Shown piece by piece: positions 2,864-58,803 of a stretch of DNA of 64,000 nt (its first letter is position 1; every line of letters begins with the position of its first letter). Source of the stretch: a phage; the sequence record PZ019084.1; one strand, given 5' to 3'. The position numbers were made by a program, and so were the translations under genes. The notes beneath the pieces were generated by a model. The model worked only from the letters and a program-made list of their open reading frames with translations. It was not told the origin of the DNA and searched no databases.

Positions 2864-3324
2864 TAGTAAAGGTCCTCAGAGTAAAGTTCTTTTTCACTAC
2901 CACCACGTTCAATACGTACTTGTCCAGCGTAAGTTGCAATAATCATTGCTTCTTCACGTGTCCAATAATTACTATATTGGTCAATAAACCCTTGGTCATC
3001 ATCACAAACTTGGTGAGTAACTAATTGAGGTTTAACTACATCTAAAACTTCGGCCATATCTTTAGAATAATGACGAGCACCTGGAATAACAAGAGTTCGT
3101 CCATCTTTTAATTTAAAACGATTGGCTGCGCAAACAATTCGTCGTTGATACTTTTGGTTTTCATCCCAATACGCAGACTGCCAGCAGATTTCAGGAACTT
3201 CTTTTAAAATATCTTCTTCTGTGCATTTATAGCCATGCGCTTTAAATTTTTCAACAAGACTTTCTGGAGTTTCACGGGATAAAGGAACATTCAGCATTTT
3301 TAAACGATTAATAAATGGGTTCAT
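2863..3324 (-). CDS. hypothetical protein
   Basis: 153-aa ORF, tightly packed with neighbours. Confidence 0.55.
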
Positions 3325-3650
3325 TTAAACCATCCTTTAATACGCTGCCACAAAGTTTTCTGTTGAGCTTTGTTTACGCCAATTGAGCGAATAACTGGTT
3401 GAGATTCCTGGAATTCTTTATAATCAGCAAGGTAAATTTCATAAGCTGCATCTGTAAATGAACTTATCGCTGACATAAAATTATTGCGAATACCTACTGG
3501 AGCATCTTTACTTTCACGAATAATCATGTATTTACCAGTTTTAATCTTTACGATAGTTCCAAGATAAGCTCCGTGGTACCAGATATCCCACCCCTCTTGA
3601 GTGGGTTCTGCACAACGACGAAGTTCATTGATAATTTCTAACTTGTTCAT
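3321..3650 (-). CDS. hypothetical protein (motA.1 position)
   Basis: 109-aa ORF immediately downstream of motA on the same strand. Confidence 0.55.
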
Positions 3651-3660
3651 TATTTATTCC

Positions 3661-4296
3661 TCACAGTTTAGATGCTACGGTGATTACTGCTTCAATGTTT
3701 TCTGCCGAGCGTTTAATGTCAAGATACACATTACCGTTTTTAGCGATTTTACATGACATTCCGATATCAGTAAATTTCTGAATATGATGTTCCATCATTT
3801 TGTATCCAAAAATTCGCATATTTCCATTGTTGTTAATTTCAAAATTACGAATTCCGTGAGTGCGTTTTTCTAAAATAGCGAGATAGTTACTGCGATAAGT
3901 TTCAACCTTTTTAAGAACAAATCCATTTTCATCTAAAAGTTTTAACATGAAGTCTTTATCTTCTTCCATATCGGAAGTAATCTCACGAGCTTTACGAGTT
4001 GCTCGTTTTTTCAGCAGTTCAGGAGCATTTTCCTGTGCGTATAAAGTTGCTGCATTTGAAATAATATCCTGAGCTTCACCTGTAATGATTAATCCATCAC
4101 CAGATTTCTCCACCAGGCCTTTTTTAATCAATACCCCAATATTACTATTAACTACTGCATTACCTAAATCTGGATGCACCTCACGAACTTCTGCAGCTGT
4201 AATGAAATCTTTCTTAGCAATGGTAATTAAAATCGCAGCAGTTTTTTCATTCAGAACATCGTTAGAAGCTTTGATGATGTAAGTTACTTTAGACAT
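3661..4296 (-). CDS. motA: middle-mode transcription activator MotA
   Basis: 211 aa starting MSKVTYIIKASNDVLNEKTAAILITIAKKDF, matching T4 MotA; SD ggag upstream. Confidence 0.9.
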   Translation of the reverse strand: MSKVTYIIKASNDVLNEKTAAILITIAKKDFITAAEVREVHPDLGNAVVNSNIGVLIKKGLVEKSGDGLIITGEAQDIISNAATLYAQENAPELLKKRATRKAREITSDMEEDKDFMLKLLDENGFVLKKVETYRSNYLAILEKRTHGIRNFEINNNGNMRIFGYKMMEHHIQKFTDIGMSCKIAKNGNVYLDIKRSAENIEAVITVASKL

Positions 4297-4335
4297 TTTC
4301 TAATCTCCGTAATTCTGTATCAGTAGTTGATAGTT

Positions 4336-4390
4336 GTATAGTACCATAGTATGCTTTGGTTGTAAACCGTTTTGTGAAAAAATTTTTGAA
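4336..4390 (-). promoter_or_regulatory. T4-type early promoter upstream of motA
   Basis: minus strand reads GTTTAC (plus 4362-4367), 18-nt spacer, TACTAT (plus 4338-4343), with A/T-rich upstream element. Confidence 0.6.
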
Positions 4391-4418
4391 ATAAAAAAGG
4401 GAGAGCCGAGGCTCTCCC
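4391..4418 (-). terminator. rho-independent terminator-like hairpin
   Basis: gggagagccgaggctctccc stem-loop followed on the minus strand by a U-run (plus ataaaaaa). Confidence 0.55.
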
Positions 4419-4423
4419 TAAAA

Positions 4424-4573
4424 TTACTGCATGACTGTGATAACTGTCATGATAACACGTTGAATTCCGAACGCAAGAAGACCTCCTGCTACGGCAGGAA
4501 CAACACCTAAACCCGCCAGTAAAATGCCACCAGATACTAATGCAGCGCTTGTAATACCTATGAATGGACTCAT
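4424..4573 (-). CDS. small hydrophobic protein (~49 aa, below ORF-track cutoff)
   Basis: ATG overlaps gene 52 stop (ATGA); translation MSPFIGITSAALVSGGILLAGLGVVPAVAGGLLAFGIQRVIMTVITVMQ is one TM-like helix. Confidence 0.4.
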   Translation of the reverse strand: MSPFIGITSAALVSGGILLAGLGVVPAVAGGLLAFGIQRVIMTVITVMQ

Positions 4574-5898
4574 TTGATTTCCTCTAAATCTTTGGTGTAT
4601 TCTGTAACTACATCAGTAGTTTTCCAATATTCGTTTTCTTCTTTCTTAGCTTTAGCTTCTTCAGCAAGTTTCTTTGCTTCGTCGGAAGTCATATGAAAAA
4701 TATTCATTCCAACTAGTTTATCAACATAAGAAGAATACATATCAATTTTAGAAAGTTCTTCGGTCAGTTCTTTGCGAGTTTTACCTTGCACAACAATTTC
4801 ACCTGAAATTACTTTCTTAATGAAATGTGCCTTGGCAAAGGCTAAACGAAATGCTGATTCAGTTTCTTTGATTTTGTTATCAATTCGTTTTTGGACATAA
4901 GTTTTACGAACTTCAACGAAGTCTTTAATTAAATCAACTACGTTATCGTAAACTTGTAGTTTTCCTTTCTCATTAATAACGGTAATATTCTGGGAACGAC
5001 GCTCAATCAACCCGAAGTCTTTCATGATTTTTGCATGGCGTTCTTCTTCGTTATCACTCAAAGAGTATTCTTTGCGGAATTTAACTTTAAAGCCAAAACC
5101 ATGCTCACCACAAGCATCATCCCATGTAATGAAGCCTTTATCTTCAAGCGGGTCTAAGATTTTACTCACATAAGTTTCACGATCATACTTATACGGAATC
5201 TCAGTGATATTCATTTGAGTTCGTGAAGTAAACTTGTACGTTCCACGAATTTCATATTGACCGTCAATTTCAACGACTTCACCGCGAAATTCTGGGAATT
5301 CTACCTTCGGTTTAGTTACTTTCTTTCCTTGAAGAGCTTGTAGTACAGCTTTCTTGACAGAAGAAACACTATGAGGAAGAATGTAAGTTGCATAACCAGT
5401 TGCAATACCGGAAACACCATTAAGAAGAACGGTAGGAATAATAGGCAAATAGAAAGCAGGCGGAATGTGTTCTTTATCTTGATGTACCGGAGCATATTCA
5501 GTATCTTTATATACGTTATAGAAATTTTTACTTACACGAGCAAAAATATAACGACTTGCCGCTGCTTTTTGAACAGTACGAGAACCAAAGTTTCCTTGAC
5601 CATCTAACAAAGGAAAGTTATTATTCCAAGTATTAGCCATCAAAGCCCCCGCGTCTTGCGCAGAGTTTTCGCCATGATGATATCCAAGGTCCGCTACACC
5701 GCCTGCAATAGAAGCGAGTTTGTGAAACTTATCTTTATTTCCTCGTGCCAAATCAAGAGCTCGAGCAATAACAAATCGTTGAACTGGCTTAAATCCATCA
5801 ATCATATTTGGAATAGCACGATTTTCAACCGTGTACATAGCATAAGCCAGTGCTTCATTATCAATGATACTTTTTAAATCGCGATTGTTCAGTTGCAT
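4570..5898 (-). CDS. 52: DNA topoisomerase II medium subunit (GyrA-like)
   Basis: 442 aa with breakage-reunion domain; position motA-52 as in T4. Confidence 0.9.
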   Translation of the reverse strand: MQLNNRDLKSIIDNEALAYAMYTVENRAIPNMIDGFKPVQRFVIARALDLARGNKDKFHKLASIAGGVADLGYHHGENSAQDAGALMANTWNNNFPLLDGQGNFGSRTVQKAAASRYIFARVSKNFYNVYKDTEYAPVHQDKEHIPPAFYLPIIPTVLLNGVSGIATGYATYILPHSVSSVKKAVLQALQGKKVTKPKVEFPEFRGEVVEIDGQYEIRGTYKFTSRTQMNITEIPYKYDRETYVSKILDPLEDKGFITWDDACGEHGFGFKVKFRKEYSLSDNEEERHAKIMKDFGLIERRSQNITVINEKGKLQVYDNVVDLIKDFVEVRKTYVQKRIDNKIKETESAFRLAFAKAHFIKKVISGEIVVQGKTRKELTEELSKIDMYSSYVDKLVGMNIFHMTSDEAKKLAEEAKAKKEENEYWKTTDVVTEYTKDLEEIK

Positions 5899-5902
5899 AA
5901 AT

Positions 5903-6043
5903 TTACCATACTAGTGAATGTAGTGCCATAATAACATCAGAAATGAAAAGCACGACTTGAATTAATCCGAACATTACTCCATAATATAGTGCTATCAATA
6001 AAATAGCAAGGGCTAATGAATAGCCCAAGATTTTCTTAATCAT
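5903..6043 (-). CDS. small membrane protein (~46 aa)
   Basis: hand-translated MIKKILGYSLALAILLIALYYGVMFGLIQVVLFISDVIMALHSLVW; overlaps stop of upstream small ORF. Confidence 0.35.
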   Translation of the reverse strand: MIKKILGYSLALAILLIALYYGVMFGLIQVVLFISDVIMALHSLVW

Positions 6044-6194
6044 TAGTAGATAACAACACAAATGTTAAATATGCACACATACCCTGAGCTAAAGCTTGTG
6101 AAAACACACTGCTAGCATCAATACAGATAGTTAAAACACATGCTACTATCCAACAAATAAATGAAATAACTCCTAATAGTTTCGCAATATTCAT
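6036..6194 (-). CDS. small membrane protein (~52 aa), possibly ac-like
   Basis: hand-translated MNIAKLLGVISFICWIVACVLTICIDASSVFSQALAQGMCAYLTFVLLSTND; SD gagga 6 nt upstream; T4 has small membrane genes between 52 and ndd. Confidence 0.4.
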   Translation of the reverse strand: MNIAKLLGVISFICWIVACVLTICIDASSVFSQALAQGMCAYLTFVLLSTND

Positions 6195-6281
6195 ATTTTC
6201 CTCACTGGCGTCCGAAGACGCCTTTAGTTTTAAGATTGTTACGATAGAACTGCATCACATGTTCGTTATGGAAATTGCTCA

Positions 6282-6740
6282 TTAATATGCCTGCAAAACA
6301 AATTTAAAATTATCAGCCAACATACGGTTCATTTCTTCAAGTGTTTGATACTCAGAATGATGATTACGAGTAAACGCTAAAGCTAACTGACCTTTTCCAA
6401 ATCCAGTCGTCAGAGGTTTCATCTTAGAAGCAGGTAGATAAAATACCGTGTATGGAACATTGTTATTTGCAATAGTACGCGCAAGCTGAGATCGACATTG
6501 GCGAATATGACTTAGAACTGCACTGAATCCTTGCTTAGAGCGCTGATTACCTACATAAAATCGTGCAGACACACATGGATTACTAAATAGACGACCATCT
6601 AATTTACTTACTAAAAAGTAAAATCCAGGTTTAGATAAAATATCTTTATGTGGAACTCCCAAAAACCATTCACCGTTCTTGATTGTACCAATAACAGTTG
6701 CGCCTGCATTGTTCAAATCAGTAACAGTCATATATTTCAT
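6282..6740 (-). CDS. ndd: nucleoid disruption protein Ndd
   Basis: start set at internal ATG ([18 protein letters not shown]...) preceded by SD gagga, giving ~152 aa like T4 Ndd; ORF-track form extends to 6788. Confidence 0.75.
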
Positions 6741-6800
6741 TTTAATTTCCTCTAAATTATTTTCTACTCCAAGGCCGCATGAATACACACGGCCGATAAA

Positions 6801-7016
6801 TTAATCGTCGCAGTCGACGCTCAATTCCCAGAACTCTTCTACGGTATAAGTTTCAGTATCATTTTCAATACAGAAACGTTCATTGCTGTTATTTGCTAAA
6901 GTAGCATTAACTGTCATTTTCTCGCTAGTGCTCTTAAGAGGTGAAATACGAATTAACTGATCACCATTATCTAAGCAAAAAATTTCACCAACTTTTACAT
7001 CTTTAAAGATTTTCAT
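6801..7016 (-). CDS. hypothetical protein
   Basis: 71-aa ORF. Confidence 0.5.
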   Translation of the reverse strand: MKIFKDVKVGEIFCLDNGDQLIRISPLKSTSEKMTVNATLANNSNERFCIENDTETYTVEEFWELSVDCDD

Positions 7017-7131
7017 AATTCACCTCAAGGAGTATAAAATCCGAATGCAGTTGTTGACCATCCCATCCAATATGGGAAATTTGCACCAATGTAAAACATA
7101 AGAATATAAAACCAAATGCTTAGTAAATTCA

Positions 7132-7350
7132 TTATTTTACACCATTCCAAATTGTTTCAACCACAGATTTTAAGCCATTTTGGTGAATATCCATTCCGAC
7201 AACTGCCATCAAATAGATTCCAACTACAACTGAACCTAAGGCAAAAATCAGCATGAAAATGAATAAAGCTGGAAAAATATTATCGAAAAACCATTCAATA
7301 AATGTAAAAGCACTGCGTTTACGCTTCATATTTTCCTCACATAAATCCAA
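7132..7350 (-). CDS. small membrane protein
   Basis: 72 aa with central hydrophobic helix (FPALFIFMLIFALGSVVVGIYLMAVVG). Confidence 0.5.
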   Translation of the reverse strand: MDLCEENMKRKRSAFTFIEWFFDNIFPALFIFMLIFALGSVVVGIYLMAVVGMDIHQNGLKSVVETIWNGVK

Positions 7351-7450
7351 AGTAAGCGTTTAATACATCAATCATTAAAACGATTGGGAATATACTCAAA
7401 ACTACTAGTATTATAACTACATTCCATATAGCTTTAACAATCTTTTTCAT
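7337..7450 (-). CDS. small membrane protein (~37 aa)
   Basis: ATG at 7450 preceded by SD ggagg and an early promoter; MKKIVKAIWNVVIILVVLSIFPIVLMIDVLNAYFGFM; ORF-track form (to 7585) reads through the promoter. Confidence 0.4.
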   Translation of the reverse strand: MKKIVKAIWNVVIILVVLSIFPIVLMIDVLNAYFGFM

Positions 7451-7476
7451 TTTCTGTTCCTCCGTAGTTGATAGGG

Positions 7477-7509
7477 TAATAATACCACAGAGGAACAGTC
7501 TTGTAAACA
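7477..7509 (-). promoter_or_regulatory. T4-type early promoter
   Basis: minus strand GTTTAC (plus 7503-7508), 18-nt spacer, TATTAT; belongs to the repeated promoter/5'UTR cassette. Confidence 0.55.
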
Positions 7510-7693
7510 ACTTTTTTAAAAATATTCGTAATAAATGTGAATACCAACTACTACCGCTGAAACTTGTGCAACCCACCACGCACAAGCAATAAGTACAGAA
7601 TTCAAAATTTTCATAATAACCTCATCACAAAAGTAAATACTAAACAAATCAATGGAATACTAATTAACCAAACAAAACACCACCACAACGAAC

Positions 7694-7966
7694 TCATAGT
7701 TCAATCTCAGCGATTTTCATTTCATTACTATTAATAGCCGCTTTAAGACTATCTGAAAGAATTACATTCCAGTGGTCATTCATATGACCATTAACTAAAC
7801 GTGTAATTTCTTCGGGAGTTGAAAAATAAGGCGTATCAGACTCCCAGTGCGATAACCCTAAGCGAGTATAAATCATACCTTCATCATCGCTAGAATATTC
7901 AACTGACACAAACTCATCAGTTATTTTATGTTTAGCGTAATAAAATTTAAATTTCATTTTACTCAA
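7694..7966 (-). CDS. hypothetical protein
   Basis: 90-aa ORF. Confidence 0.5.
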   Translation of the reverse strand: MSKMKFKFYYAKHKITDEFVSVEYSSDDEGMIYTRLGLSHWESDTPYFSTPEEITRLVNGHMNDHWNVILSDSLKAAINSNEMKIAEIEL

Positions 7967-8169
7967 TAATCCGCTAAAAGATCGACGATTGCATCACGAA
8001 GACACTTATTCGCAATACGCTTAAGAGCAATTTCAGTTTCTGGAGCATTTTGAATAATCATTGAATTCAATTCAGCCTCAGCAAACTGAAGTTCTTTAAC
8101 TAATTCAGCTTTATATTTTCCTTGCCCTTTCTTAGCTTTTGCTCGTTTTAATTCAGCTGTAGTAAACAT
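7963..8169 (-). CDS. hypothetical protein (~68 aa)
   Basis: start set at ATG 8169 (MFTTAELKRAKAKKG...) downstream of early promoter and SD ggag; longer ORF-track form reads through the promoter. Confidence 0.5.
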   Translation of the reverse strand: MFTTAELKRAKAKKGQGKYKAELVKELQFAEAELNSMIIQNAPETEIALKRIANKCLRDAIVDLLADY

Positions 8170-8201
8170 TTTATTCTCCAAATCCGTATCAGTTGATAGT
8201 T

Positions 8202-8234
8202 GTATAGTACCACAGTCCTTGTGGTATGTAAACT
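8202..8234 (-). promoter_or_regulatory. T4-type early promoter
   Basis: minus strand GTTTAC (plus 8228-8233), 18-nt spacer containing inverted repeat accacag/ttgtggt, TACTAT (plus 8204-8209). Confidence 0.55.
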
Positions 8235-8249
8235 GTTTTGTGAAAATTT

Positions 8250-8807
8250 TTAAATGGAAAGATACCATCCGTTGTAGTTGCTTTTTCTTACAACCTTACG
8301 AAGGTCTTCTCTATCACCGATGAACTTCGGAGTGTACTGGATGACACCTGGATGAATTTCTTTAGTGTTGAATATAATTATACAGTCAGCGACCTGATGA
8401 TTCAGAATGGGCCCTAGATTTATTCCAGAACCGTATGGATACTCTCCGCTGCATCCGGTTGTTACCGAAATCCAGCGTGAGTCAGTTTGGTGTGTTTTGA
8501 CTTCTACACGAAGCCCGCAATATCTTGGATGCGCCAATACATCCCATGCGTATGTATACGGGTCATTAACATCCTCTTGGCCTTTGTTAACATACCCGCT
8601 CAGCCAATCTGCTACAAAAAACTCTGCATACACAGCGATACGGCATCTTTCGATGACTTCTGCTTTATCCTGATTAGGATTTTGTTTTAAAGAGTATCTT
8701 GCTGTATCAGCAATTTTGACCTTCATTTCACTAGTCAAGTCATTGTTCGATAGGGTAAATGTCGGAATCTGAAATAGTCTCTGTAAACCCGGATTCGTTT
8801 TCTGCAT
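8250..8807 (-). CDS. denB: endonuclease IV (DenB)
   Basis: 185 aa, same length as T4 DenB; position between ndd and rIIB. Confidence 0.65.
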   Translation of the reverse strand: MQKTNPGLQRLFQIPTFTLSNNDLTSEMKVKIADTARYSLKQNPNQDKAEVIERCRIAVYAEFFVADWLSGYVNKGQEDVNDPYTYAWDVLAHPRYCGLRVEVKTHQTDSRWISVTTGCSGEYPYGSGINLGPILNHQVADCIIIFNTKEIHPGVIQYTPKFIGDREDLRKVVRKSNYNGWYLSI

Positions 8808-8871
8808 TAAACTTTCCTTTTACGTCGGAATCACTGATGTTAATATAATAAATCATAGTTTCCCTTAAAAC

Positions 8872-8890
8872 AAAAGGGCCGAAGCCCTTT
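8872..8890 (-). other. GC hairpin with CGAA loop in denB upstream intergenic region
   Basis: aaagggccgaagcccttt. Confidence 0.4.
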
Positions 8891-8893
8891 ACT

Positions 8894-9088
8894 TTATTTG
8901 AATTGTGCAATTCTTTTCTCTAAACAATCTGCGTAAGATTTCATTGAGATAAACTGCGAAAGCAGTAATTCTTGCTCAACTGCATTAACCGTTGAAAACT
9001 TTTCACTTTCTAAAAATTTGCTCAGTGCATTAATTTTGAGCATTAATTGATCGTATTCTTCTTTTACTCGTGCTTGATAACCTAACAT
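8894..9088 (-). CDS. hypothetical protein
   Basis: 64-aa ORF downstream of rIIB; preceded by hairpin and SD aaggaaa. Confidence 0.5.
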   Translation of the reverse strand: MLGYQARVKEEYDQLMLKINALSKFLESEKFSTVNAVEQELLLSQFISMKSYADCLEKRIAQFK

Positions 9089-9102
9089 AATTTTCCTTAG
9101 TT

Positions 9103-9118
9103 AAGGGCCGAAGCCCTT
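9103..9118 (-). other. GC hairpin (CGAA loop) overlapping rIIB stop codon, upstream of next SD
   Basis: aagggccgaagccctt directly at rIIB stop, followed on the mRNA by aaggaaaatt ATG. Confidence 0.45.
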
Positions 9119-10055
9119 ATTTAAATTGTTCAGTAACGTCTTCAACTACTTCGTATTGGCAGGTACGCATTTTAGCATCGTTGTAATCAATCGGAATTGA
9201 TACTACATCGCGAGGATGTACTTTAACTTTTACAACTCGGCTGGTTGAACTGCCAAAGTGACGAATATAAGATTTAGAACACACATGCAGACCACGAGAA
9301 CAAGTTTGTGTATCATCGTCATTCACACGAGTACGTGGCATTTTAACTACTTTACCAGGACTGTTATCAAAAGTATTTGAATGGCAGTCAAAGTAATTGC
9401 TGCGAACTACTTTCCAGGCATAGAAGTAGCCGTCTTCTGTAATTTCAATATCGTTTGCTACCAAGAAATCAAAGAGTCGAGATACCGCTTTTTGGCTCGG
9501 GTTTTCTAACAGATTTTCCAAGAACGGAAAATAAAATTCAAAGTTTTCGCCTTTTTCCATCGAATCGAGAATACGATCAACTAAACCAGATCGCAATTCA
9601 ATATTTTGATAGAACAAGCTTCCACCTTCAATTCGAACATCACCGGAAATATATTTTTCAACAGCGCGACGAACGTTAATTTTTTGCGCCGCTTCTTCCA
9701 ATTTATCTGCAACAAGCAGATTAAGAATTTCTTGGAAGTTTGAATGAGTATTAGGAGTTGCGTTATAAGTTACACCGTCAACAGTAATTGAAATGAATTT
9801 TTTAGATGCATTCCAAATAATGTCAGATTTAGCAACTGGAGCAATAGCTGCATCGCTCTTAACTGTAACTGTAATGTCACCGCTAATGGTAACTTTGGAG
9901 CGCTCAGCTTCTTCAGCATTTTTCAAAACACGACGGATTGTGTCCACCGATACACCTTGCCAATCAGCCAATTCCTGTTGGGTGTAATTACCACTTGAAT
10001 ACAGTTTGACAATTTCAGCTTGTTCGTTTTTGGTCAGGCATTTAATATTGTACAT
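9117..10055 (-). CDS. rIIB: rapid-lysis/membrane-associated protein rIIB
   Basis: 312 aa starting MYNIKCLTKNEQAEIVKLYSSGNYTQQELADWQGVS; length and order rIIA-rIIB as in T4. Confidence 0.9.
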   Translation of the reverse strand: MYNIKCLTKNEQAEIVKLYSSGNYTQQELADWQGVSVDTIRRVLKNAEEAERSKVTISGDITVTVKSDAAIAPVAKSDIIWNASKKFISITVDGVTYNATPNTHSNFQEILNLLVADKLEEAAQKINVRRAVEKYISGDVRIEGGSLFYQNIELRSGLVDRILDSMEKGENFEFYFPFLENLLENPSQKAVSRLFDFLVANDIEITEDGYFYAWKVVRSNYFDCHSNTFDNSPGKVVKMPRTRVNDDDTQTCSRGLHVCSKSYIRHFGSSTSRVVKVKVHPRDVVSIPIDYNDAKMRTCQYEVVEDVTEQFK

Positions 10056-12481: not shown

Positions 12482-12514
12482 TAATTATACCACATCCTTG
12501 TGGTAAAGTAAACT
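12482..12514 (-). promoter_or_regulatory. T4-type early promoter
   Basis: minus strand GTTTAC (plus 12508-12513, overlapping gene 39 stop), 18-nt spacer, perfect TATAAT (plus 12484-12489). Confidence 0.6.
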
Positions 12515-14330
12515 ATTGGCTCATCCATTCTTTACGAAGGTCAGCATTATCTCCCATGAGCATTTCAAAAAGCTCTTTCCAGTTCTCAGGAAGTTTAACA
12601 ACATCATATACTGGGTTTTGAATCATCTCACGATATTCAGATTTTTCCAAAGAGCCAAGTCCCTTAATATAACGGATGCTATGTTTAGGTAGAGCATCCT
12701 TGACACTCTCATATTCAGCGACTGTATAAAACCATTCTTGTTTTTTACCGACCTGAGCGATGATTACAGGAGTTTTGACGAAGCGAATTCTTCCTTGATC
12801 AAACAGTTCTGGCCAATTACTAAAAAATCCGAGCAGAGAAGGATAAATGCTCCCTAGACCATCATGGTCAGCATCAGTCATAATAGCAATATTATGATAA
12901 TTCAAGTTTTCAGCTTTTTCACCAAGAACTAATCCAGTGATTGCGCAAATGTCAAACAGTTCTTTGTTTTTAAGCATATCAGCATATGACATACCCCAGC
13001 TATTAAGAACTTTACCACGCAATGGATAACCACCATGAAGTTCTTTATCACGAACATCAATAAGATATCCGATAGCGGAATCACCCTCAGTCAAGAAAAG
13101 AGTAGTGTCAGCATCTTTACCACAAAGATTCGCTTTAATATGTTTATGAACCTTAGCTTTAGAAGCCTTTTTAGCTGCTTTAGTTTCTGCTGCTTTTTCT
13201 GCCGCCAATTTACGAGCCAAGGCAGCTTCAATGATTGGCATTAAAATTGCTTCATTATTTAAAATAGCGCGTGAAATCTTTTTAGCATCAAGCTGAATAT
13301 GACTACGAATTTCACCAAAAGGAGAAGTCAAACGCTCTTTAGTCTGAGAATCAAATCGCATGTTTTTCATATCACGAACAAACATAACGATAGTCAAACA
13401 TTCTTTAACACGTGCTTTAGTTACATCAATTTTGAACTTGCGTTTGATTTGTGGAATAAGGTCTTCACAAATATCATCCATAACACAGTCAATATGATGG
13501 CCACCATTCTTAGTATGAATGTTATTGACGTATGTTAATTGACGAAAACCATCAGGTGAACGACCAACCGCAATAGAACAATTTTCTTGTTCTTGAACGA
13601 TAGCATGCTCATCATATTGGCGTGCATATTTCTTAAAATTACCCTGAACCTTTTTACCGTTAAAGGTAAATTGAATATCAGGATAAACTACTGCAAGCGT
13701 CTGGAGACGATCCAGTGTAATGTCAAGATAAACTTGAGATAGCTCATTAGTTTCAAATGACATAAAATCAGGAATGAAAGTAACACGAGTTCCTTTCCAT
13801 TTTCCAGGAATAGTTTCCCATGATTTATTTTCCATGCCATTTGAACAACGAACTACAATATTATTTTGACCGTCGCCAGTTTCACCGACAAACATCACAG
13901 AAAAAATGTTAGTTAAACTAGAACCAACACCATTCATACCGCCAGTGACGCGTTCTTTATCATCACCAAAGTTACCACCTGCTTTTGGAATAGTCCAGGC
14001 AGCAACAGGACCAGGAATTTCTTCACCAGTAGGTGTTTTAACCATCGCTTGTGGAATACCACGACCATTATCTTCAACTGTTACTTGATTGTTTTTAATA
14101 GTAACATTAATTTTATTTGCGAATTTAAACTTAGTACGAATACCTTCATCTACTGAGTTATCGATAATTTCATCAATAAGCTTAACAAGACCAGGTACAT
14201 ACTGAACACTTTCCCATTTACCAAACAGAAAGCGCTCATGCATTTCATTAGCAGAAGAGCCAATATACATGCCGCTACGCTTTTTGATATGTTCAATATC
14301 GCTCAGAATTTTAATTTCATTCTTAATCAT
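12513..14330 (-). CDS. 39: DNA topoisomerase II large subunit (GyrB-like), fused 39+60 form
   Basis: ~605 aa single ORF with ATPase N-terminus and TOPRIM C-terminus; ORF track begins one codon earlier at GTG 14333. Confidence 0.9.
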   Translation of the reverse strand: MIKNEIKILSDIEHIKKRSGMYIGSSANEMHERFLFGKWESVQYVPGLVKLIDEIIDNSVDEGIRTKFKFANKINVTIKNNQVTVEDNGRGIPQAMVKTPTGEEIPGPVAAWTIPKAGGNFGDDKERVTGGMNGVGSSLTNIFSVMFVGETGDGQNNIVVRCSNGMENKSWETIPGKWKGTRVTFIPDFMSFETNELSQVYLDITLDRLQTLAVVYPDIQFTFNGKKVQGNFKKYARQYDEHAIVQEQENCSIAVGRSPDGFRQLTYVNNIHTKNGGHHIDCVMDDICEDLIPQIKRKFKIDVTKARVKECLTIVMFVRDMKNMRFDSQTKERLTSPFGEIRSHIQLDAKKISRAILNNEAILMPIIEAALARKLAAEKAAETKAAKKASKAKVHKHIKANLCGKDADTTLFLTEGDSAIGYLIDVRDKELHGGYPLRGKVLNSWGMSYADMLKNKELFDICAITGLVLGEKAENLNYHNIAIMTDADHDGLGSIYPSLLGFFSNWPELFDQGRIRFVKTPVIIAQVGKKQEWFYTVAEYESVKDALPKHSIRYIKGLGSLEKSEYREMIQNPVYDVVKLPENWKELFEMLMGDNADLRKEWMSQ

Positions 14331-14382
14331 CACTTATCCTCGTTTGGTTTCGGGAATATTATACTCCGGTAATCATAAAGCT

Positions 14383-14400
14383 AAAGGCCCGAAGGCCTTT
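14383..14400 (-). other. GC hairpin (CGAA loop) immediately after stop of lipoprotein gene
   Basis: aaaggcccgaaggccttt. Confidence 0.4.
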
Positions 14401-14672
14401 TATTTAAAACGGATAGTCGAATCCTTGAAGAATAGACCAGAACATACAGTTCCTTCTACTTTCTGCCCGGTAGGTCCAATAGCACGAAATCCAGTATGTT
14501 GGAAATCATTTTCAGAGCAACCGAACCAATTATATCCAGTGATTTCAATATTAGTAAAACCACTTGAAGACAAAACTTTGGTTGCATTATCAGCATCAGT
14601 ACATCCTACTAAAGATACTGCTAATACTAATGCCGCGATAGAACGATTAACATATTTCATAATTTCACTCAA
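14400..14672 (-). CDS. putative lipoprotein
   Basis: 90 aa; signal peptide with lipobox LVGC (AALVLAVSLVGCTD). Confidence 0.55.
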   Translation of the reverse strand: MSEIMKYVNRSIAALVLAVSLVGCTDADNATKVLSSSGFTNIEITGYNWFGCSENDFQHTGFRAIGPTGQKVEGTVCSGLFFKDSTIRFK

Positions 14673-15217: not shown

Positions 15218-15637
15218 TTATTCCTTAAAGTGTGCTTTCAACATCTGATACAAGGACCATGCCTGTTCATTATTTTCAATAGTAACTTTCATGACAGGAA
15301 ATTCTGTGAAATCTTCTATTTGTTCTTGCTCTTCCTGCTCTTGCTCTTCAGATGCCTGATATGGATTTTCAACTTCATCAAAGAACCCAGCTTCGTTAGT
15401 AGAGAGCCAGATAAAGTTTTCGTCAAGGATATCACCATGTGTTGCATATCCAACTGTGCCGGTAGATGTCACAATTTTAGTAGGACGCCCGTAATAGTCA
15501 ACATCTAAAATTTTAAAAGGTTCCATACCTAAACGTCGTGCATAGATTCCGTTATCAGTATGGTCTTTAATAAAATTTTCTTGAGCCTGTTTATTTTTAA
15601 ATTGATACCATTTATTAACTTCAAATTTAATAGCCAT
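15218..15637 (-). CDS. hypothetical acidic protein
   Basis: 139 aa with [10 protein letters not shown] acidic stretch. Confidence 0.55.
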
Positions 15638-15852
15638 TAATAAATTTCCTTCCAGTAAGTTGTACCGTCTTCAGTGATTTCACGGAATACACCATAAATC
15701 GGTTGTTTATCACCAACCTTTTCATACACATAAACCGAAGTCAAGTGAGTAAACTTAGCAGTGTGCTCCTTTTGAACTACTACCAAATCTGGATCGAATA
15801 ATACATCTTCAAATTCGTCATTAGTGCATTTCTGAACAGTTTTACGTTTCAT
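15637..15852 (-). CDS. hypothetical protein
   Basis: 71-aa ORF, ATGA overlap with downstream gene. Confidence 0.5.
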
Positions 15853-16032
15853 TACAATTTCCTCATTAATTGAACAGTGGAGCGATGCGTTTCAGAAGAG
15901 TCAGTACCTTTGGCAAATTTTCCATTTTATTCTCCAAGTTGTTTTCTATATCAGTAGTTGATATTGATATAGTACCATAATCAACTACTGATGTATATAG
16001 TTTTATGAAAAAATTTTAAGCTTTATGCAAAT

Positions 16033-28058: not shown

Positions 28059-28200
28059 TGAAAGCTTTAACTAGCGCTTTATTAACTTCAGCATATTGAG
28101 TAGTAGCCCATTGAACGTCATCTTTCATCATTGTGATTTCTTTAGTAAACATGCTTTCATTCTTAAACCACCCCATAAAAACTACCTTTACCAATTCCAT
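28018..28200 (-). CDS. dmd: Dmd antitoxin (discriminator of mRNA degradation)
   Basis: 60 aa starting MELVKVVFMGWFKNESMFTKEI, matching my recall of T4 Dmd; position next to gene 41. Confidence 0.75.
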   Translation of the reverse strand: MELVKVVFMGWFKNESMFTKEITMMKDDVQWATTQYAEVNKALVKAFIDDKKVCEVDCRG

Positions 28201-28227
28201 AAAAATCTCCTCATTTAACCAACAAGA

Positions 28228-28260
28228 CTACTATACCATAGTCTTGTCAGCTTGTAAACT
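28228..28260 (-). promoter_or_regulatory. T4-type early promoter upstream of dmd
   Basis: minus strand GTTTAC (plus 28254-28259), 18-nt spacer, TATAGT inside inverted repeat caagacta/tagtcttg. Confidence 0.55.
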
Positions 28261-33283: not shown

Positions 33284-33664
33284 TCACTTAGTCAAATTTT
33301 TTACGCATGAATTGTAAGAATTTACTACATACTCCATCGGAGCATTTTTACCAGTACGCCATTGGTAATTATTAGCCCAATTAGCCCAAAGTTCAGCACA
33401 GTAGTTTTCAATTTTTTCTTCGCGTGTAATTACATCCGAATTACGATATGCTTGAGCAGATTCGTCTGGACGAATAGCTTCGTCAAAATTCGCCTGCATT
33501 TGTTCTACTGTCTGTTTTGGAGCTTCTTTATAACACTTGACGTTAGGATTATAAAATTTGCTTGAACAGTTTACAATTTTTCCTACATCAGACTGATTTA
33601 CTACTGGTCCTTGAGCTACACAACCAGTAAGACCTAATGCAATAACCAAAATAGCGATTTTCAT
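33284..33664 (-). CDS. secreted protein/lipoprotein (imm.1 position)
   Basis: 126 aa; signal peptide with lipobox LTGC. Confidence 0.6.
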   Translation of the reverse strand: MKIAILVIALGLTGCVAQGPVVNQSDVGKIVNCSSKFYNPNVKCYKEAPKQTVEQMQANFDEAIRPDESAQAYRNSDVITREEKIENYCAELWANWANNYQWRTGKNAPMEYVVNSYNSCVKNLTK

Positions 33665-33676: not shown

Positions 33677-33928
33677 TTAAAACTTAACAAATAATTTTAA
33701 AGCATCTTCAGTTTTAATTCCTTTTCTTACACCCATAACAGAAATTGGCTGTGACTGAAATTTTCCTTTGCCATTATAAATTTCTAACCCAGTCACCATT
33801 CCATTTTGTTCTATAATACCATAAGTATTACCTTCATTTTCGAATTCTTTAACTTTAAAGAGTTTATTAGCTTTTTCTGCATTAACAACTTTTAAATTTT
33901 GAATAAAATTAGTTTGAATGTTTTTCAT
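33677..33928 (-). CDS. hypothetical protein (~83 aa)
   Basis: start set at ATG 33928 (MKNIQTNFIQ...) after early promoter and SD ggagg; ORF-track form reads through the promoter. Confidence 0.5.
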   Translation of the reverse strand: MKNIQTNFIQNLKVVNAEKANKLFKVKEFENEGNTYGIIEQNGMVTGLEIYNGKGKFQSQPISVMGVRKGIKTEDALKLFVKF

Positions 33929-33954
33929 TTTGTGTTCCTCCGTAGTTGATAGTT

Positions 33955-33987
33955 GTATAGTACCACGGAGGAACAGTCTTGTAAACA
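33955..33987 (-). promoter_or_regulatory. T4-type early promoter (repeated cassette)
   Basis: minus strand GTTTAC (plus 33981-33986), 18-nt spacer, TACTAT (plus 33957-33962). Confidence 0.55.
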
Positions 33988-34069
33988 GTTTTGTGAAAAA
34001 ATTTTTAATGAATTTACAGGACCTAGAATCATCTATTTTTCTTAAGTATAGATTTATATTACTTGTATG

Positions 34070-36800: not shown

Positions 36801-36858
36801 AGATATTCCTTAGTTTATAGCCCGAGTTATTAGGCTCTTGATATATTATACTCCAAAT

Positions 36859-36876
36859 AAGGGGCCGAAGCCCCTT
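36859..36876 (-). other. GC hairpin (CGAA loop) between regA stop and gene 43 leader
   Basis: aaggggccgaagcccctt abutting regA stop. Confidence 0.4.
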
Positions 36877-36878
36877 GC

Positions 36879-37247
36879 TTAATTACCAATCGTATATTTA
36901 GGAACGAGTTTCCATTCGTGTTTTTGTTTAAAAGAAATAACTCGGAAGTTATTGGTTAAATCTTTCATAAAAGTTCTTTGACCAGGAACGATTTCAATCA
37001 GTCCCCAATCTTCTAACAGCCACGCAATCGAATCACGGCGAACTTCATCTTCTTCTGTCATTTCAACCTGACGGCCATCCATACGAAGCATTTCTTTAAA
37101 ATGAACGATATAGTATAGTCCTTTTTTCTGAAGAATGTGGCAGGACTGATACAGAACTTTATCTTTATTATTAGCAATTCCCATACGAGTCAAAGTTTCT
37201 TTTACTTTCAGAAAATCTTCAGGTTTTTTAAGAGTAATTTCAATCAT
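36879..37247 (-). CDS. regA: translational repressor RegA
   Basis: 122 aa, same length and position (62-regA-43) as T4 RegA. Confidence 0.8.
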   Translation of the reverse strand: MIEITLKKPEDFLKVKETLTRMGIANNKDKVLYQSCHILQKKGLYYIVHFKEMLRMDGRQVEMTEEDEVRRDSIAWLLEDWGLIEIVPGQRTFMKDLTNNFRVISFKQKHEWKLVPKYTIGN

Positions 37248-38788: not shown

Positions 38789-38804
38789 GTTTTAGTGTAA
38801 ATTT

Positions 38805-38820
38805 AAGGGCCGAAGCCCTT
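38805..38820 (-). other. GC hairpin (CGAA loop) between gene 45 stop and gene 44 SD
   Basis: aagggccgaagccctt followed on the mRNA by ...gaggaaatt ATG. Confidence 0.45.
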
Positions 38821-38822
38821 TA

Positions 38823-39509
38823 TTAAAAGTCGTGGGTAGAATCAGCTTCAAGAGCTACTACATAATTCGCATGTTCACCTTCAAATTTAGCAGCGCCTTG
38901 TTTACCTTTTGCCCAGAGCAGAAGTTTATAATTTCCTGGTTGCATTTTCATATTTGCCATATTGATAATGAAATTAAATGTATTTTCACCATCATAATCA
39001 CCAAGAGTCAAAGAATATTTAACACGGGTCAAAGCAGAATCTTCCACTTTATTAAAACCGTTAATTACAATTTTACCTTCTTTTACTGTGATAGCAATTG
39101 TATCAATCTGCAGACCACGAGATACACGCAACAGCTGTTGAAGGTCTTCAGCTTTAATTTCAGTAACAACAGATGCTACCGGGAATGGAATTGGTTTATT
39201 AGGAGCAACTACTGTGCTCGGATCAGCTGCTGGCCAAAAAATTGTTGAACGGGCATCAGCAATTTTAATATTTCCATCTTCTGACTGGGAAATTTCTGCA
39301 TCGTCATTAACTAAGGACAGAATACCGAGAAAACCGTTCAAATCGTAAATCGCTACATCAAAATCAATAGTGTCAGAAATATTTGCTTCCGCATAAGTTG
39401 TACCATTAACTGCGCGAGTCATAATAAATTGACCGGATTTAAGCATAATACCGGAGTTAATAGTAGCGAAATTTTTAAGCAGAGCAGTAGTATCTTTAGA
39501 CAGTTTCAT
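38823..39509 (-). CDS. 45: sliding clamp
   Basis: 228 aa, same length and position as T4 gp45. Confidence 0.9.
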   Translation of the reverse strand: MKLSKDTTALLKNFATINSGIMLKSGQFIMTRAVNGTTYAEANISDTIDFDVAIYDLNGFLGILSLVNDDAEISQSEDGNIKIADARSTIFWPAADPSTVVAPNKPIPFPVASVVTEIKAEDLQQLLRVSRGLQIDTIAITVKEGKIVINGFNKVEDSALTRVKYSLTLGDYDGENTFNFIINMANMKMQPGNYKLLLWAKGKQGAAKFEGEHANYVVALEADSTHDF

Positions 39510-44067: not shown

Positions 44068-44227
44068 ATATCAAGAACCGTCATTGAAATGCAAAATAAA
44101 ATTATTGAAATAAATCCGTCCGGAGTGCTAAAGAACCCAATCCAACATGCTCTAGTGAATAGATAAAATGCGAGAAAAAGTATCACATATCCAAGAAATA
44201 TCATTATATCAAACTCCGTATAAAGCT

Positions 44228-44245
44228 AAAGGGCCGAAGCCCTTT
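44228..44245 (-). other. GC hairpin (CGAA loop) overlapping a-gt stop
   Basis: aaagggccgaagcccttt. Confidence 0.4.
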
Positions 44246-45446
44246 ATTTTGTAATAATGTCAAACTGTTCTTTAAAGCAGAAGCTTGAATCTTGATGCTG
44301 ATACAAAAATTCATAAGCTTTTTCGCGTTCACGGTCATAAAGAGCTCGGTCAGATGACAGTTCTTTAATACGCTCAAATGTTGATTCCATGTCATTTTCA
44401 TCAAACCAAACGATACCGCTATCATGAGAAATTAACGGAGTATTATCAACACGGAATTTTAAATTTTCGCCAGTAGATTTCCAAAATACTGGAATTGTTC
44501 CACATGCACCAAGCTCGAGATGAGTATATTCTAAAGAACGTTGTAGATATTTTTTGTCCAACTTACTCAGCTGATAACCAAATCCAGATTTACTCATGCG
44601 TTCAAGCATTTCGCTATTTACATAACGGTCAAGAATTTGCGTTGGCAAATTAGGAGCAATTTTAATTTGGTCTACTTGATGAAGACGATAATACTCGTAT
44701 GGAATTCCTTTTTCTTTAATAGGAATGAACGCTGGAGAACGTTCCAGACCTTCCATAATAGTACTTAACCCTGCAGGTTTAAGATGTTTTTCGTGAAAAT
44801 CAAACATCTGATAAAAACCTTTCCATGTAGTAGTACGACCAATCCAACGGTTGATATTCATGTTAATTTCAGAAACATCTTTCCAGTAAGTTGATCGAAC
44901 CTTCGCAATATCCATAGGAGGCTGAAAGTTGTATACAGTCGGTGCTTCTTCAATATCATCAAACAGTGAAACAGTTTCTGGATACCATTCTTTCATCAGA
45001 ACTTTATTAAAATCACCATTATCAGAATGACTAAAAATAACATCAGCTCGGCGAACAGTTTCTTCTAATCCCAAATTTCGACGCAAAGAAAGAGAAGAAT
45101 GGTCATGTTGATAAACTACAACACGAACCGAAGGTTTAATGTTATCAATAATTTTTTTATAGTTATTAATAGTGTCTTCTTCGACTGAAGTAGCAGGAAC
45201 TGAATTGATAACTAGAATATCACAATCATTTACCAGCTTAAGCGTTTTATCGTATTCTTTTGCCAATAAAACCGGAATTGAAAATGATTTATAATCATGC
45301 GCGCAATTACGTGTAAATGATTTATCTTTAGCATAAACCAAAGTTACTTCATGACCATTTTTAATAAACCAATCACGCTGCTCAAGAGAAAATTTAGTTA
45401 CGCCACAACCTTCAAGACCTCGAGCCATAAAAATGCATACTTTCAT
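44244..45446 (-). CDS. agt: alpha-glucosyltransferase
   Basis: 400 aa, same length as T4 alpha-gt; position between 47 and 55. Confidence 0.85.
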   Translation of the reverse strand: MKVCIFMARGLEGCGVTKFSLEQRDWFIKNGHEVTLVYAKDKSFTRNCAHDYKSFSIPVLLAKEYDKTLKLVNDCDILVINSVPATSVEEDTINNYKKIIDNIKPSVRVVVYQHDHSSLSLRRNLGLEETVRRADVIFSHSDNGDFNKVLMKEWYPETVSLFDDIEEAPTVYNFQPPMDIAKVRSTYWKDVSEINMNINRWIGRTTTWKGFYQMFDFHEKHLKPAGLSTIMEGLERSPAFIPIKEKGIPYEYYRLHQVDQIKIAPNLPTQILDRYVNSEMLERMSKSGFGYQLSKLDKKYLQRSLEYTHLELGACGTIPVFWKSTGENLKFRVDNTPLISHDSGIVWFDENDMESTFERIKELSSDRALYDREREKAYEFLYQHQDSSFCFKEQFDIITK

Positions 45447-47829: not shown

Positions 47830-47863
47830 ACATTATCCTCAATTACGTTAAAATTTTATTATC

Positions 47864-47883
47864 CAAAAAGGGCCGAAGCCCTT
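47864..47883 (-). terminator. rho-independent terminator-like hairpin
   Basis: aagggccgaagccctt followed on the minus strand by a U-rich run (plus atccaaaaa). Confidence 0.5.
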
Positions 47884-48082
47884 AGCTAAACTGTTTGGCA
47901 CCCTTCCAGCCTTCGTACATCATTGCAGCTGATATTAATATTGCTCCTGCGCATTTTGAATATTTGTGATTCCAAAACCAGTTCAGAAAAACTTCGTCAT
48001 CAATACCTTGGGCTATCATATTTTCAAAGAACTGGCGACGAGCTTCAGCAATTCGTTGCGATAATTTAGATTCAGGATTCAT
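47882..48082 (-). CDS. hypothetical protein
   Basis: 66-aa ORF. Confidence 0.5.
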   Translation of the reverse strand: MNPESKLSQRIAEARRQFFENMIAQGIDDEVFLNWFWNHKYSKCAGAILISAAMMYEGWKGAKQFS

Positions 48083-48515: not shown

Positions 48516-48690
48516 GGAGTTTAATTTCCTTAGCAACTGAACTAAATACAGCACGATCGCAAATCATCTGTTTATGTAACTTGAGTATAAGATAATAAAC
48601 TTCAAAACCGTTTACATAAGTAACACGAACAACATTACCATTAATAAAATAATATTGTCCCTTTTTAATTTCTTTATCAACCACAACCAT
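48508..48690 (-). CDS. hypothetical protein
   Basis: 60 aa; SD gagga and early promoter upstream. Confidence 0.45.
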   Translation of the reverse strand: MVVVDKEIKKGQYYFINGNVVRVTYVNGFEVYYLILKLHKQMICDRAVFSSVAKEIKLHG

Positions 48691-48718
48691 ATCAAATCCT
48701 CAAAGGCAATTCATGTGT

Positions 48719-48751
48719 TAATAATACCACAGTTTGAACTTCTTGTAAACA
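48719..48751 (-). promoter_or_regulatory. T4-type early promoter
   Basis: minus strand GTTTAC (plus 48745-48750), 18-nt spacer, TATTAT. Confidence 0.5.
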
Positions 48752-48824
48752 ACTTTGTGAAAATTATTTTAGGGAATGATAAGAAGGGAACGATAGCTTA
48801 GAATGGTAATATACAGAATGTGAG

Positions 48825-56376: not shown

Positions 56377-56406
56377 ATTATACCACATCCTTGTGGCGAA
56401 GTAAAC
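56377..56406 (-). promoter_or_regulatory. T4-type early promoter
   Basis: minus strand GTTTAC (plus 56401-56406), 18-nt spacer with ccacatccttgtgg inverted repeat, TATAAT. Confidence 0.55.
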
Positions 56407-57434
56407 TAGTTTAGTGCATTTAGTGCATTGTTTAGTTTAGAACGTTGCTTCGTGAGATTTTTGACTTTTTCTTGAGCTTTTTCTAGCATCTTTTCAGCTT
56501 CTAACACTTCATTAGTTGCTTTAACGAGTTCATCATCTACTGCCTTGATAGACTTCTCAATCGCATCGGCATGCCATTTTTCAACAGGTTTAAGACTCGG
56601 ATTTTCAACAGGAAGAAAATTCACTTTATTGAATTTCCATGCATCATTATTACCTGAACTATACATCCAAAATTTAGGATCGTTTGATGAGTAATTGGAT
56701 AAATTTAAATTTAAGTTATCTTGCACTTCTTGCTTTTTCTCTTGTGTAACTTCGTCCTTTCTCAAAAATTCATATTTAAATGAAACGATCATATCAAGTT
56801 CATACGTTGTTGTATGTTCCCAATTTCGCTCAAAACGAGGTAAAATCTTAGACTGAACTGCAGCAACAACATCCATATACTTAAATGCTTCTGTCAACTG
56901 CGATTTAAGGCATTCGCAAATTGAAAGAGAATTTTTTGTATTAGGTTTAAAGCTAATTCGTGCAGTTCTGTTATTTTCTTTTAATGGTCTTACTTCCATC
57001 TGAAGAGTATAACCATCAAATTTCAGATTCTTTAAGTTAATATCAGAACCTTTTAATCGACTCGCAGTTGATAAAATTTGCTTTAATTGTCTACGGAACA
57101 GAGCAATAAATCTCCATTCAATACGATAATGATTTGGATTGAAAAATCCAGATAATAAATCGACCTTACTTTGACCAACGCCTTGAACAAATAGAGGATT
57201 TTTATAATCAATAGTTTTACAGAAATCTGTGAGCTGCTCACGAGCCGTCATTTGTGTAATATACCCCGCTTTACTAAAATTACTCACCCATTCACTGCTA
57301 TTTAGATATTTAAAATGATGAATAGCACGATTAACTTTATCAGGGTCTAAATTATTTTGACACAAAAATGTCATAACATCACGAGTATAGCTGGCATTAC
57401 GAACCATATCTTCAATTTGAGAACGAGTTTTCAT
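56406..57434 (-). CDS. hypothetical protein, member C of tandem paralog family
   Basis: 342 aa; N-terminus MKTRSQIEDMVRN; C-terminal coiled coil. Confidence 0.55.
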   Translation of the reverse strand: MKTRSQIEDMVRNASYTRDVMTFLCQNNLDPDKVNRAIHHFKYLNSSEWVSNFSKAGYITQMTAREQLTDFCKTIDYKNPLFVQGVGQSKVDLLSGFFNPNHYRIEWRFIALFRRQLKQILSTASRLKGSDINLKNLKFDGYTLQMEVRPLKENNRTARISFKPNTKNSLSICECLKSQLTEAFKYMDVVAAVQSKILPRFERNWEHTTTYELDMIVSFKYEFLRKDEVTQEKKQEVQDNLNLNLSNYSSNDPKFWMYSSGNNDAWKFNKVNFLPVENPSLKPVEKWHADAIEKSIKAVDDELVKATNEVLEAEKMLEKAQEKVKNLTKQRSKLNNALNALN

Positions 57435-58354: not shown

Positions 58355-58748
58355 TTTTACTAAATATACAGAATAAGATGGAACAGACTATATAAGCACC
58401 ACACACAGATTGAACTAATACCATTCCAAAGAACCAAACAATATTATCAAACAATGTCTGTTTTACGTCGAAAGGACGTAAACTTACAGTAATATTATCA
58501 CCTTTTTCTATTGAAGAATACATCTCTGGGGAAATATATTCACTAAATCTATAACCATCTTTGAGTTCATATACGGCAATAAACGATAAACTAGACCCTT
58601 TTCCTTGTGTTCCTGTAATGGTATTAACTACAGTAACATCATAATCTTTATAATGCATATAATCATTAATTGCGTAATAACCATATGCAACTACTACACA
58701 TAAACAACATATCAATAAATTCAATCTTTTAATTATCAACTGTTTCAT
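58341..58748 (-). CDS. membrane protein
   Basis: 135 aa with N- and C-terminal TM helices. Confidence 0.5.
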   Translation of the reverse strand: MKQLIIKRLNLLICCLCVVVAYGYYAINDYMHYKDYDVTVVNTITGTQGKGSSLSFIAVYELKDGYRFSEYISPEMYSSIEKGDNITVSLRPFDVKQTLFDNIVWFFGMVLVQSVCGAYIVCSILFCIFSKIEIE

Positions 58749-58803
58749 AATAATCTCAATTAAAAGGGCTTAGAACCATTATACCATCCTTGGTATAAAG
58801 CGG

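Follow-up and report, generated by a model that had tools for sequence, protein, structure and literature searches.

The repeat upstream of motA (positions 4305–4418 of the window, the 64,000-nt stretch analyzed here), a similar one upstream of an nrdC.10 homolog (60771–60877), and a shorter one downstream of denB (8177–8234), referred to below as cassettes A, B, and C, very probably belong to a family of at least eight T4-type early-promoter cassettes of the PeSL (promoter-early stem-loop) class, and owe their likeness to functional constraint together with descent and crossing over. The initial annotation had recognized these three copies and missed the larger family. The evidence comes from the anatomy of the cassettes, their predicted hairpins, the size of the family, its conservation in T4 and hundreds of relatives, its mosaicism, and the indels found at the cassettes. 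Published work on T4 and its relatives already covers the element type, the promoter and RegB site it carries, and a proposed role for it in modular shuffling.

Genomic setting

The window is from a Tequatrovirus (T4-like phage), ~97% identical to IME339 and ime09. Megablast searches with positions 3000–9000 and 58500–64000 as queries matched hundreds of Tequatrovirus genomes at 96–98% identity. All matches have the same gene order: arn, motA, motA.1, 52, ac, ndd, denB, and rIIB at one end, and nrdC.6 to nrdC.11 and mobD at the other. All of the genes concerned are on the minus strand, and the cassettes are therefore read on that strand; the sequences of A, B, and C are indeed present there at the positions first assigned to them.

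Cassette A is predicted to drive motA (3661–4296, minus strand), whose identification was confirmed. The gene downstream of B had been called an ATPase. It is a homolog of nrdC.10 (59796–60764, minus strand; 322 aa), predicted to be driven by B, and its P-loop/AAA signals are weak (PMC1524935): all AAA/clamp-loader-like matches in Pfam and PHROGs are sub-threshold. Cassette C is predicted to drive a 68-aa ORF (7963–8169, minus strand) that is missing in T4 and several other phages. Small ORFs flanking the cassettes have no known function by Pfam and PHROGs search.

Anatomy of the three cassettes

All of the parts originally listed for A and B (SD, 5′UTR, TACTAT, GTTTAC, an A/T-rich element, and a GC hairpin) are present in both, the hairpin with a T-run. 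Coordinates in this section are on the minus strand. The A copy runs from the GGAG before motA (4305) to the first G of a hairpin past the motA.1 stop codon (4418). The hairpin itself, GGGAGAGCC-TC-GGCTCTCCC (4398–4419), is GC-rich, with a 9-bp stem and a predicted energy of −20.4 kcal/mol (z −5.1); it lies 5 nt past the stop codon (4424–4426) and is followed by a T-run at 4388–4397. Next comes an A/T-rich region, TTTTTTATTTCAAAAATTTTTTCACAAAACG (4368–4397), corresponding to the UP elements of T4 early promoters (PMC2988021), and then the core early promoter (4338–4367), with GTTTAC at 4362–4367, TACTAT at 4338–4343, and an 18-nt spacer with TGG at its end (extended −10). A 20-nt core covering the −10 box and start region, GGTACTATACAACTATCAAC (4326–4345), is identical in five of the cassettes in the window. 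The unstructured leader (4294–4325) includes the SD, GGAG, at 4305–4308 and ends with the motA ATG (4294–4296); a RegB-type site in it, GGAGATTAGAA (4298–4308), matches the consensus at 10 of 11 positions.

The center of the A hairpin (loop at 4407–4410) varies among phages: it is CCTCGG here and in phage G4500, CCGAGG in T4, ime09, and fPS-90, and CCTTGG in one IMG/VR contig. CCTCGG and CCGAGG are mutual reverse complements, a “flip” of the loop.

The B copy extends in the same way from the GGAG before the nrdC.10 homolog (60771) to a hairpin past the nrdC.11 stop codon (60877). This hairpin, GGGAGCC-TTCG-GGCTCCC (60860–60877; −17.5 kcal/mol, z −3.9), is 8-bp, has a UUCG loop, and begins 2 nt past the stop codon (60880–60882), with a T-run at 60853–60859. 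The UP element and promoter occupy 60799–60859 (GTTTAC at 60823–60828; TGG-TACTAT, with TACTAT at 60799–60804), and the 20-nt core (60787–60806), leader, and ATG (60762–60764) occupy 60762–60806. The leader contains an exact RegB/S1 site, GGAGAATAAAA, at 60764–60774.

The shorter copy is also real, and reaches further upstream than first described, to ~8252. Cassette C (8167–8252) has GTTTAC at 8228–8233, TACTAT at 8204–8209, the core at 8192–8211, an exact RegB/S1 site at 8169–8179, and its ATG at 8167–8169. Its UP element overlaps the denB stop codon (8250–8252). There is no strong terminator hairpin in C; a weak stem (−4.2 kcal/mol, z −1.05) falls short of an intrinsic terminator.

Promoter, terminator, and RegB activities, and the mechanism of recombination considered below, are ascribed to these sequences by analogy with the T4 and RB49 literature. 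The GC-rich hairpin and U-run directly after the upstream stop codon would end the upstream transcript. The UP element, GTTTAC(A), TGG, and TACTAT would together form a very strong promoter for the unmodified host sigma-70 polymerase, used immediately post-infection, with the conserved discriminator and start region ACAACTATCAAC after it. The short unstructured leader would then present a GGAG SD lying within a RegB/S1 nuclease site; since the SD is inside this site, translation would start promptly, and the message would be cut off by phage RegB minutes later.

Sequence similarity among A, B, and C

When A (114 nt) and B (107 nt) are aligned globally, 98 positions are identical and 5 mismatched, and 15 gap columns make up 8 indels; identity is 83% over all columns and 95% over ungapped columns. 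With both hexamers left out, the figures are 86/106 (81%) and 86/91 (95%). The initial annotation had named identity below about 80% outside the hexamers as the finding that would refute it; identity does not fall below this level by either count, but with the all-column value barely above it, “near-identical” was generous wording.

The two share TTTTTTATTTCAAAA(A)TTTTTTCACAAAACG downstream of the hairpin, then GTTTAC(A), the 18-nt spacer ending in TGG, and TACTAT; the ACAACTATCAAC start region follows, and after it a leader of 25–32 nt ending in GGAG-N6-8-ATG. In all three cassettes the SD is 6 to 8 nt ahead of the ATG. The B and C leaders end in GGAGAATAAAATG, an optimal RegB/S1 cleavage site (RNA GGAGAAUAAAA; DNA GGAGAATAAAA-TG).

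The longest exact blocks are 27 nt between A and B, 22 nt between A and C, and 46 nt between B and C. The 27-mer occurs twice, vs. 0.00 times in shuffled sequences. The 46-nt block runs from TGGTACTAT (the −10 box) through the ATG; B and C are 100% identical over the 20 nt after the −10, and C also shares the proximal UP element. Upstream of the promoter it is A and B that are most alike: in an ungapped, hexamer-anchored comparison of the 50 nt upstream of the −35 in 18 early promoters, they were the top pair of 153, at 80% identity vs. a mean of 35%. B is thus a mosaic, resembling A in its upstream half and C in its downstream half.

The wider family in the window

A repeat search grouped seven to eight copies, at 4313, 7439, 8179, 15944, 33932, 48696, 59335, and 60774, and a scan for GTTTAC-N18-TAnnAT found ~18 early-type promoters on the minus strand. 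All cassette copies have one orientation relative to transcription, pointing along the transcription of their surroundings. Three further members, all on the minus strand, have a second type of leader, with ACTACGGAGGAACA common to the cassettes at 33986, 59389, and 7508. One (~7448–7530) has a spacer and leader that together form a 15-bp stem around the −10 box, covering the SD; another, downstream of the DNA polymerase gene (33926–34010), has both the 20-nt core and the −10 stem; and the third (59329–59410), also with the 20-nt core, precedes an nrdC.8 homolog 1.44 kb downstream of B. There is a related copy at ~48688–48771. The remaining member (15923–16020, minus strand) has an A-like leader with an exact RegB/S1 site (15925–15935) and a weaker −35, ATATAC. 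Its −35 is degraded and its core-like region intact, and a very short ORF follows before the next gene (15637–15852); it may be a decaying cassette, or one driving a mini-ORF.

There are three exact copies of the optimal RegB/S1 11-mer in the window (in B, in C, and at 15925–15935), all within the cassette family, vs. 0.47 expected. With one mismatch allowed, the consensus is not enriched in the window (15 found vs. 11 expected).

A 14–15-bp inverted repeat encloses the −10 box and start site at 7448–7508, 33926–33986, 59329–59389, 28195–28259, and 63540–63604 (minus strand). Folded as RNA, these early promoters have predicted energies of −18.9 to −23.2 kcal/mol (z −3.8 to −5.8). In the first three, spacer and leader are predicted to pair, SD (GGAGG) included, such that the SD would be masked in read-through RNA from upstream and free in RNA started within the loop. 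The ndd.4 version in T4 keeps the pairing through G-U-compatible changes.

Relation to known phage elements

PeSLs were named by the Krisch group and defined in RB49/phi1 (Arbiol et al., 2010, PMC2839356), where they are intergenic cassettes combining an A/T-rich region and early promoter with a stem-loop, SD, and ATG. Promoter and terminator function were tested there, and mini-circles were detected, with crossovers between the −10 and the SD or ATG (PMC2839356). In the PST/T4 type characterized by Comeau et al. (2014, PMC4122927), the promoter is TTTACW-N17-TAYWAT and the stem-loop lies immediately upstream of it; the worked example there is an ndd.4/.5 exchange, within the ndd–denB region of this window.

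A and B agree exactly with the PST/T4 type as given there (PMC4122927), feature by feature, and the sequence anatomy of terminator, promoter, and 5′UTR first proposed for them is right. Both lie between an upstream stop codon and an ATG, and C runs from the denB stop to an ATG. All three have TTTACA-N17-TACTAT with a TTTTTTCACAAAAC-type A/T-rich element upstream, and an SD and start codon downstream; a stem-loop with T-run, from which intrinsic termination is predicted, is found in A and B only. Like PeSLs, the family has many copies per genome (at least eight in the window), with adjoining indels and ORF replacements (at A, C, and the cassette at 33986). The stem-loop around the −10 that is common in RB49 PeSLs is also found in other members of the window family. 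The differences are that C lacks a strong stem-loop, and that A and B precede conserved genes (motA and nrdC.10) rather than ORFans. Mini-circles and promoter and terminator activity were demonstrated for RB49/phi1.

Lambdoid morons and the gene cassettes of integrons are likewise small accessory genes carrying or receiving their own promoter and terminator, gained and lost as units. Here, however, it is the regulatory sequence that is proposed to supply the homology for exchange, and there is no integrase or attC site.

As promoters, the cassettes do not differ substantially from other T4 early promoters, which combine UP, −35, TGn, and −10 elements with additional consensus regions, and out-compete host promoters immediately post-infection (PMC2988021; see also PMC1524935). 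A GTTTAC −35, a GT-rich extended −10, TAnnAT, an A-rich UP element, and an early gene downstream are all present; motA is an early gene of T4 (PMC2988021, PMC3014915). Only a subset of early promoters has the ACAACTATCAAC start region, making the cassettes a sub-family within this class.

The optimal site for T4 RegB/S1 is GGAGAAUAAAA, with the consensus GGAGRAYARAA (Durand et al., 2006, PMC1702504). The motA RNA is a good RegB substrate, and nrdC.8 is moderately cut (PMC1702504; for the RegB site and motA as substrate, also PMC3014915). The predicted sites in the B and C leaders are exact, in unstructured RNA, and overlap the SD; the one in motA differs by a single mismatch, GGAGAUUAGAA. Co-regulation of motA with the gene downstream of B, which the initial annotation had suggested testing, is probably real but trivial: both would be immediate-early genes with RegB-type SD sites, as are many T4 genes. 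Stretches of this kind are best labeled early promoter and terminator cassettes, not suspicious repeats.

Cassettes as probable exchange points between phages

The suggestion that these repeats could mediate rearrangements holds for small ORFs, which have been gained, lost, or replaced at A, at C, and at the cassette at 33986. It does not hold for A and B as a pair: a crossover between them would delete 56 kb including the genes for DNA polymerase and a topoisomerase subunit, so no viable deletions would come of it. At B no rearrangement was found within Tequatrovirus, and a hybrid junction between B and the nrdC.8 promoter, marking the loss of nrdC.10 and nrdC.9, was covered to 80% or more by none of 687 matching phage records.

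Phage G4500 has a 75-aa ORF separating motA from the A promoter, with an early promoter on each side of it; these two promoters share the leader CTATCAAATAAATGAACTGAAAC. The ORF is present at ≥95% identity in 138 records, and roughly one in four Tequatrovirus records has it at this position. The T4-type motA leader was considered as the single-crossover product of deleting the ORF from the G4500 arrangement, but the sequences do not fit; since it is not a simple deletion product, a single crossover does not explain the history at A.

Downstream of denB, three arrangements are seen after the C promoter and leader: the 68-aa ORF, in the window and in ime09; a 90-aa ORF directly, in three IMG/VR contigs; or, in T4, just the final 8 codons (MKIAEIEL) of the 90-aa ORF, fused to the leader. 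The 3′ end of the 68-aa ORF, GCGGATTATTGAGTAAAATG (~7955–7976), resembles the cassette leader ACGGATTTGGAGAGTAAAATG (8167–8189), and in other phages the cassette leader directly precedes the 90-aa ORF. The resemblance is suggestive only, but the 3′ end may be a remnant of a leader, left as the footprint of an insertion by crossing over within it.

Downstream of the polymerase gene, other phages have the same upstream flank joined to a different spacer, leader, and first gene. Some combine a type-2 spacer with a type-1 leader, breaking the type-2 inverted repeat, which implies a crossover in the shared core. The same variable slot in the window includes a 126-aa ORF (33284–33664, minus strand) whose signal is of the lipoprotein type, MKIAILVIALGLTGC. 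An 83-aa ORF precedes it in the window; one IMG/VR contig lacks the 83-aa ORF at this point and has the cassette directly before the 126-aa ORF.

The 75-aa ORF is found outside Tequatrovirus as well. In Salmonella phage Melville (Gelderlandvirus) a homolog lies between the homologs of nrdC.11 and nrdC.10 (82% and 79% amino-acid identity), the site equivalent to B, where it has a predicted terminator and early promoter of its own; its leader is related and ends in TTGGAGAATAAAATG. In the Jiaodavirus Klebsiella phage Metamorpho a homolog adjoins tRNA genes. The relevant stretches of the sequences examined are 401–870 (G4500), 1060–1800 (Melville), and 1195–1431 (Metamorpho). The ORF keeps a related leader in G4500 and Melville. 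An ORF and leader at the A site in one genus and at the B-equivalent site in another would, we infer, fit movement of cassettes between loci. That A and B are alike because both serve as docking sites for the same traveling ORF cassettes, as the positions of this ORF at A and B-equivalent sites might indicate, is a speculative possibility and on balance rather unlikely. If it is true, with movement by way of the 20-nt core and leader and possibly a core-recognizing factor, it would represent directly traceable movement of a gene cassette between loci in a lytic phage.

More generally, patches of 20–46 nt before many unrelated early genes would offer portable homology for the insertion, loss, and replacement of small ORFs between related phages. 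In the engineering or assembly of T4-like genomes, such recurrent identical patches can seed ectopic recombination or misassembly.

Origin of the similarity

Two sources would together account for the likeness of the copies: strong functional constraint on nearly every position, and descent from a common ancestor with occasional crossing over within the core they share, giving mosaics. The initial annotation had taken conservation to extend well beyond what promoter function requires. Some of the conserved sequence has known functions, in the extended early-promoter consensus (PMC2988021) and the RegB/S1 site (PMC1702504); with exact RegB/S1 sites in B and C and 10 of 11 positions matched in motA, much of the apparent excess has a known function.

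Constraint might even be thought sufficient. The early promoters of T4 have an unusually long consensus (PMC2988021), the leaders end in an optimal RegB/S1 site (PMC1702504), and hairpins with UUCG loops recur across the window, so copies could have arisen independently under selection for promoter strength, termination, and RegB sensitivity, with no recombination. The similar hairpins could indeed be partly convergent, given how common GC stems with UUCG loops are in this genome. As a full explanation, however, pure convergence is quite unlikely: the exact blocks of 27–46 nt cross positions without known constraint (the hairpin stem, and the leader from +6 to the SD); the core is found in only a subset of the 18 early promoters, and the others use different start regions; mosaics of type-2 spacer and type-1 leader break the type-2 inverted repeat; and the 75-aa ORF keeps a leader type with it from one genus to another.

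It is decidedly unlikely that the start region and leader are instead a dedicated regulatory element, an RNA structure or operator, of a special regulon including motA and nrdC.10. Conservation of the 20-nt core and of the GGAGAATAAAATG end is what such an element would produce, and CTATCAA is found at the same distance from the −10 even in the Gelderlandvirus Melville. Nevertheless, the A and B leaders have no significant RNA structure beyond that of shuffled sequences (z −0.6 and +0.3), and a structured 5′UTR element was dropped from consideration on that account. Nothing relevant was found in Rfam: in a scan of 3500–9500 at a permissive threshold, the sole match was a sub-threshold one to REN-SRE (24.8 bits vs. 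a gathering score of 41), a chance match inside the motA coding sequence. The cassettes also precede unrelated small ORFs, and the RegB/S1 site and the promoter start region already explain the conserved parts.

The original suggestion was of recent copying or recombination, that is, duplication or gene conversion within this genome, with one cassette copied to the other locus. A and B do, as noted, resemble each other more than any other pair over the 50 upstream nt, and at one UP-element position A in the window agrees with B (ATTTCAAAA) where A in T4 has ATTTTAAAA. The distribution of the cassettes largely refutes this and makes it very improbable. T4 has practically the same A cassette before motA and the same B cassette before nrdC.10, as well as the nrdC.8 cassette. 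By blastn, A matches 552 phage records, at ~7 places per genome and nearly all of them Tequatrovirus phages of enterobacteria; 395 of these cover at least 80% of the query, and thus carry A nearly full-length. The deposited annotations of some phages label the A site as a terminator and predicted early promoter. The A- and B-specific spacers and hairpins, and the 3-nt and 4-nt indels in the leaders, are the same in every phage examined (T4, ime09, and several IMG/VR contigs). A scan of IMG/VR for the exact 20-nt core found 21 stretches on a few contigs, a small census with too few for statistics. Across phages, concerted evolution of A and B amounts to that single shared nucleotide variant, with no convincing signal. 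Since T4 and its relatives have these A and B cassettes at corresponding loci, the duplication or exchange that produced them is older than the divergence of Tequatrovirus.

Spread by transposition of a small non-autonomous mobile element (MITE-like, or a homing-endonuclease target) would account for the many dispersed copies per genome, often beside variable ORFs, but is scarcely credible for copies that are uniformly oriented and placed exactly between stop codon and ATG, with no terminal inverted repeats or target duplications in the aligned copies and no associated nuclease gene.

Other repeated sequences in the window

Two further sets of repeats are distinct from cassettes A, B, and C. 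A family with the sequence AAGGGCCGAAGCCCTT, at 8866–8901, 9103–9130, 14376–14405, 36852–36881, 38797–38832, 44221–44256, and 47860–47895, forms predicted hairpins with UUCG/CGAA loops, so that a terminator-like GC stem and tetraloop occurs about seven times in the window. Some of these appear symmetric enough that they may act on both strands. The early promoters at 12484–12515 and 56377–56408 lie 44 kb from each other and have in common a 32-nt block (94% identity) with a palindromic spacer, CCACAAGGATGTGG; they make up a separate sub-family of near-identical early promoters.
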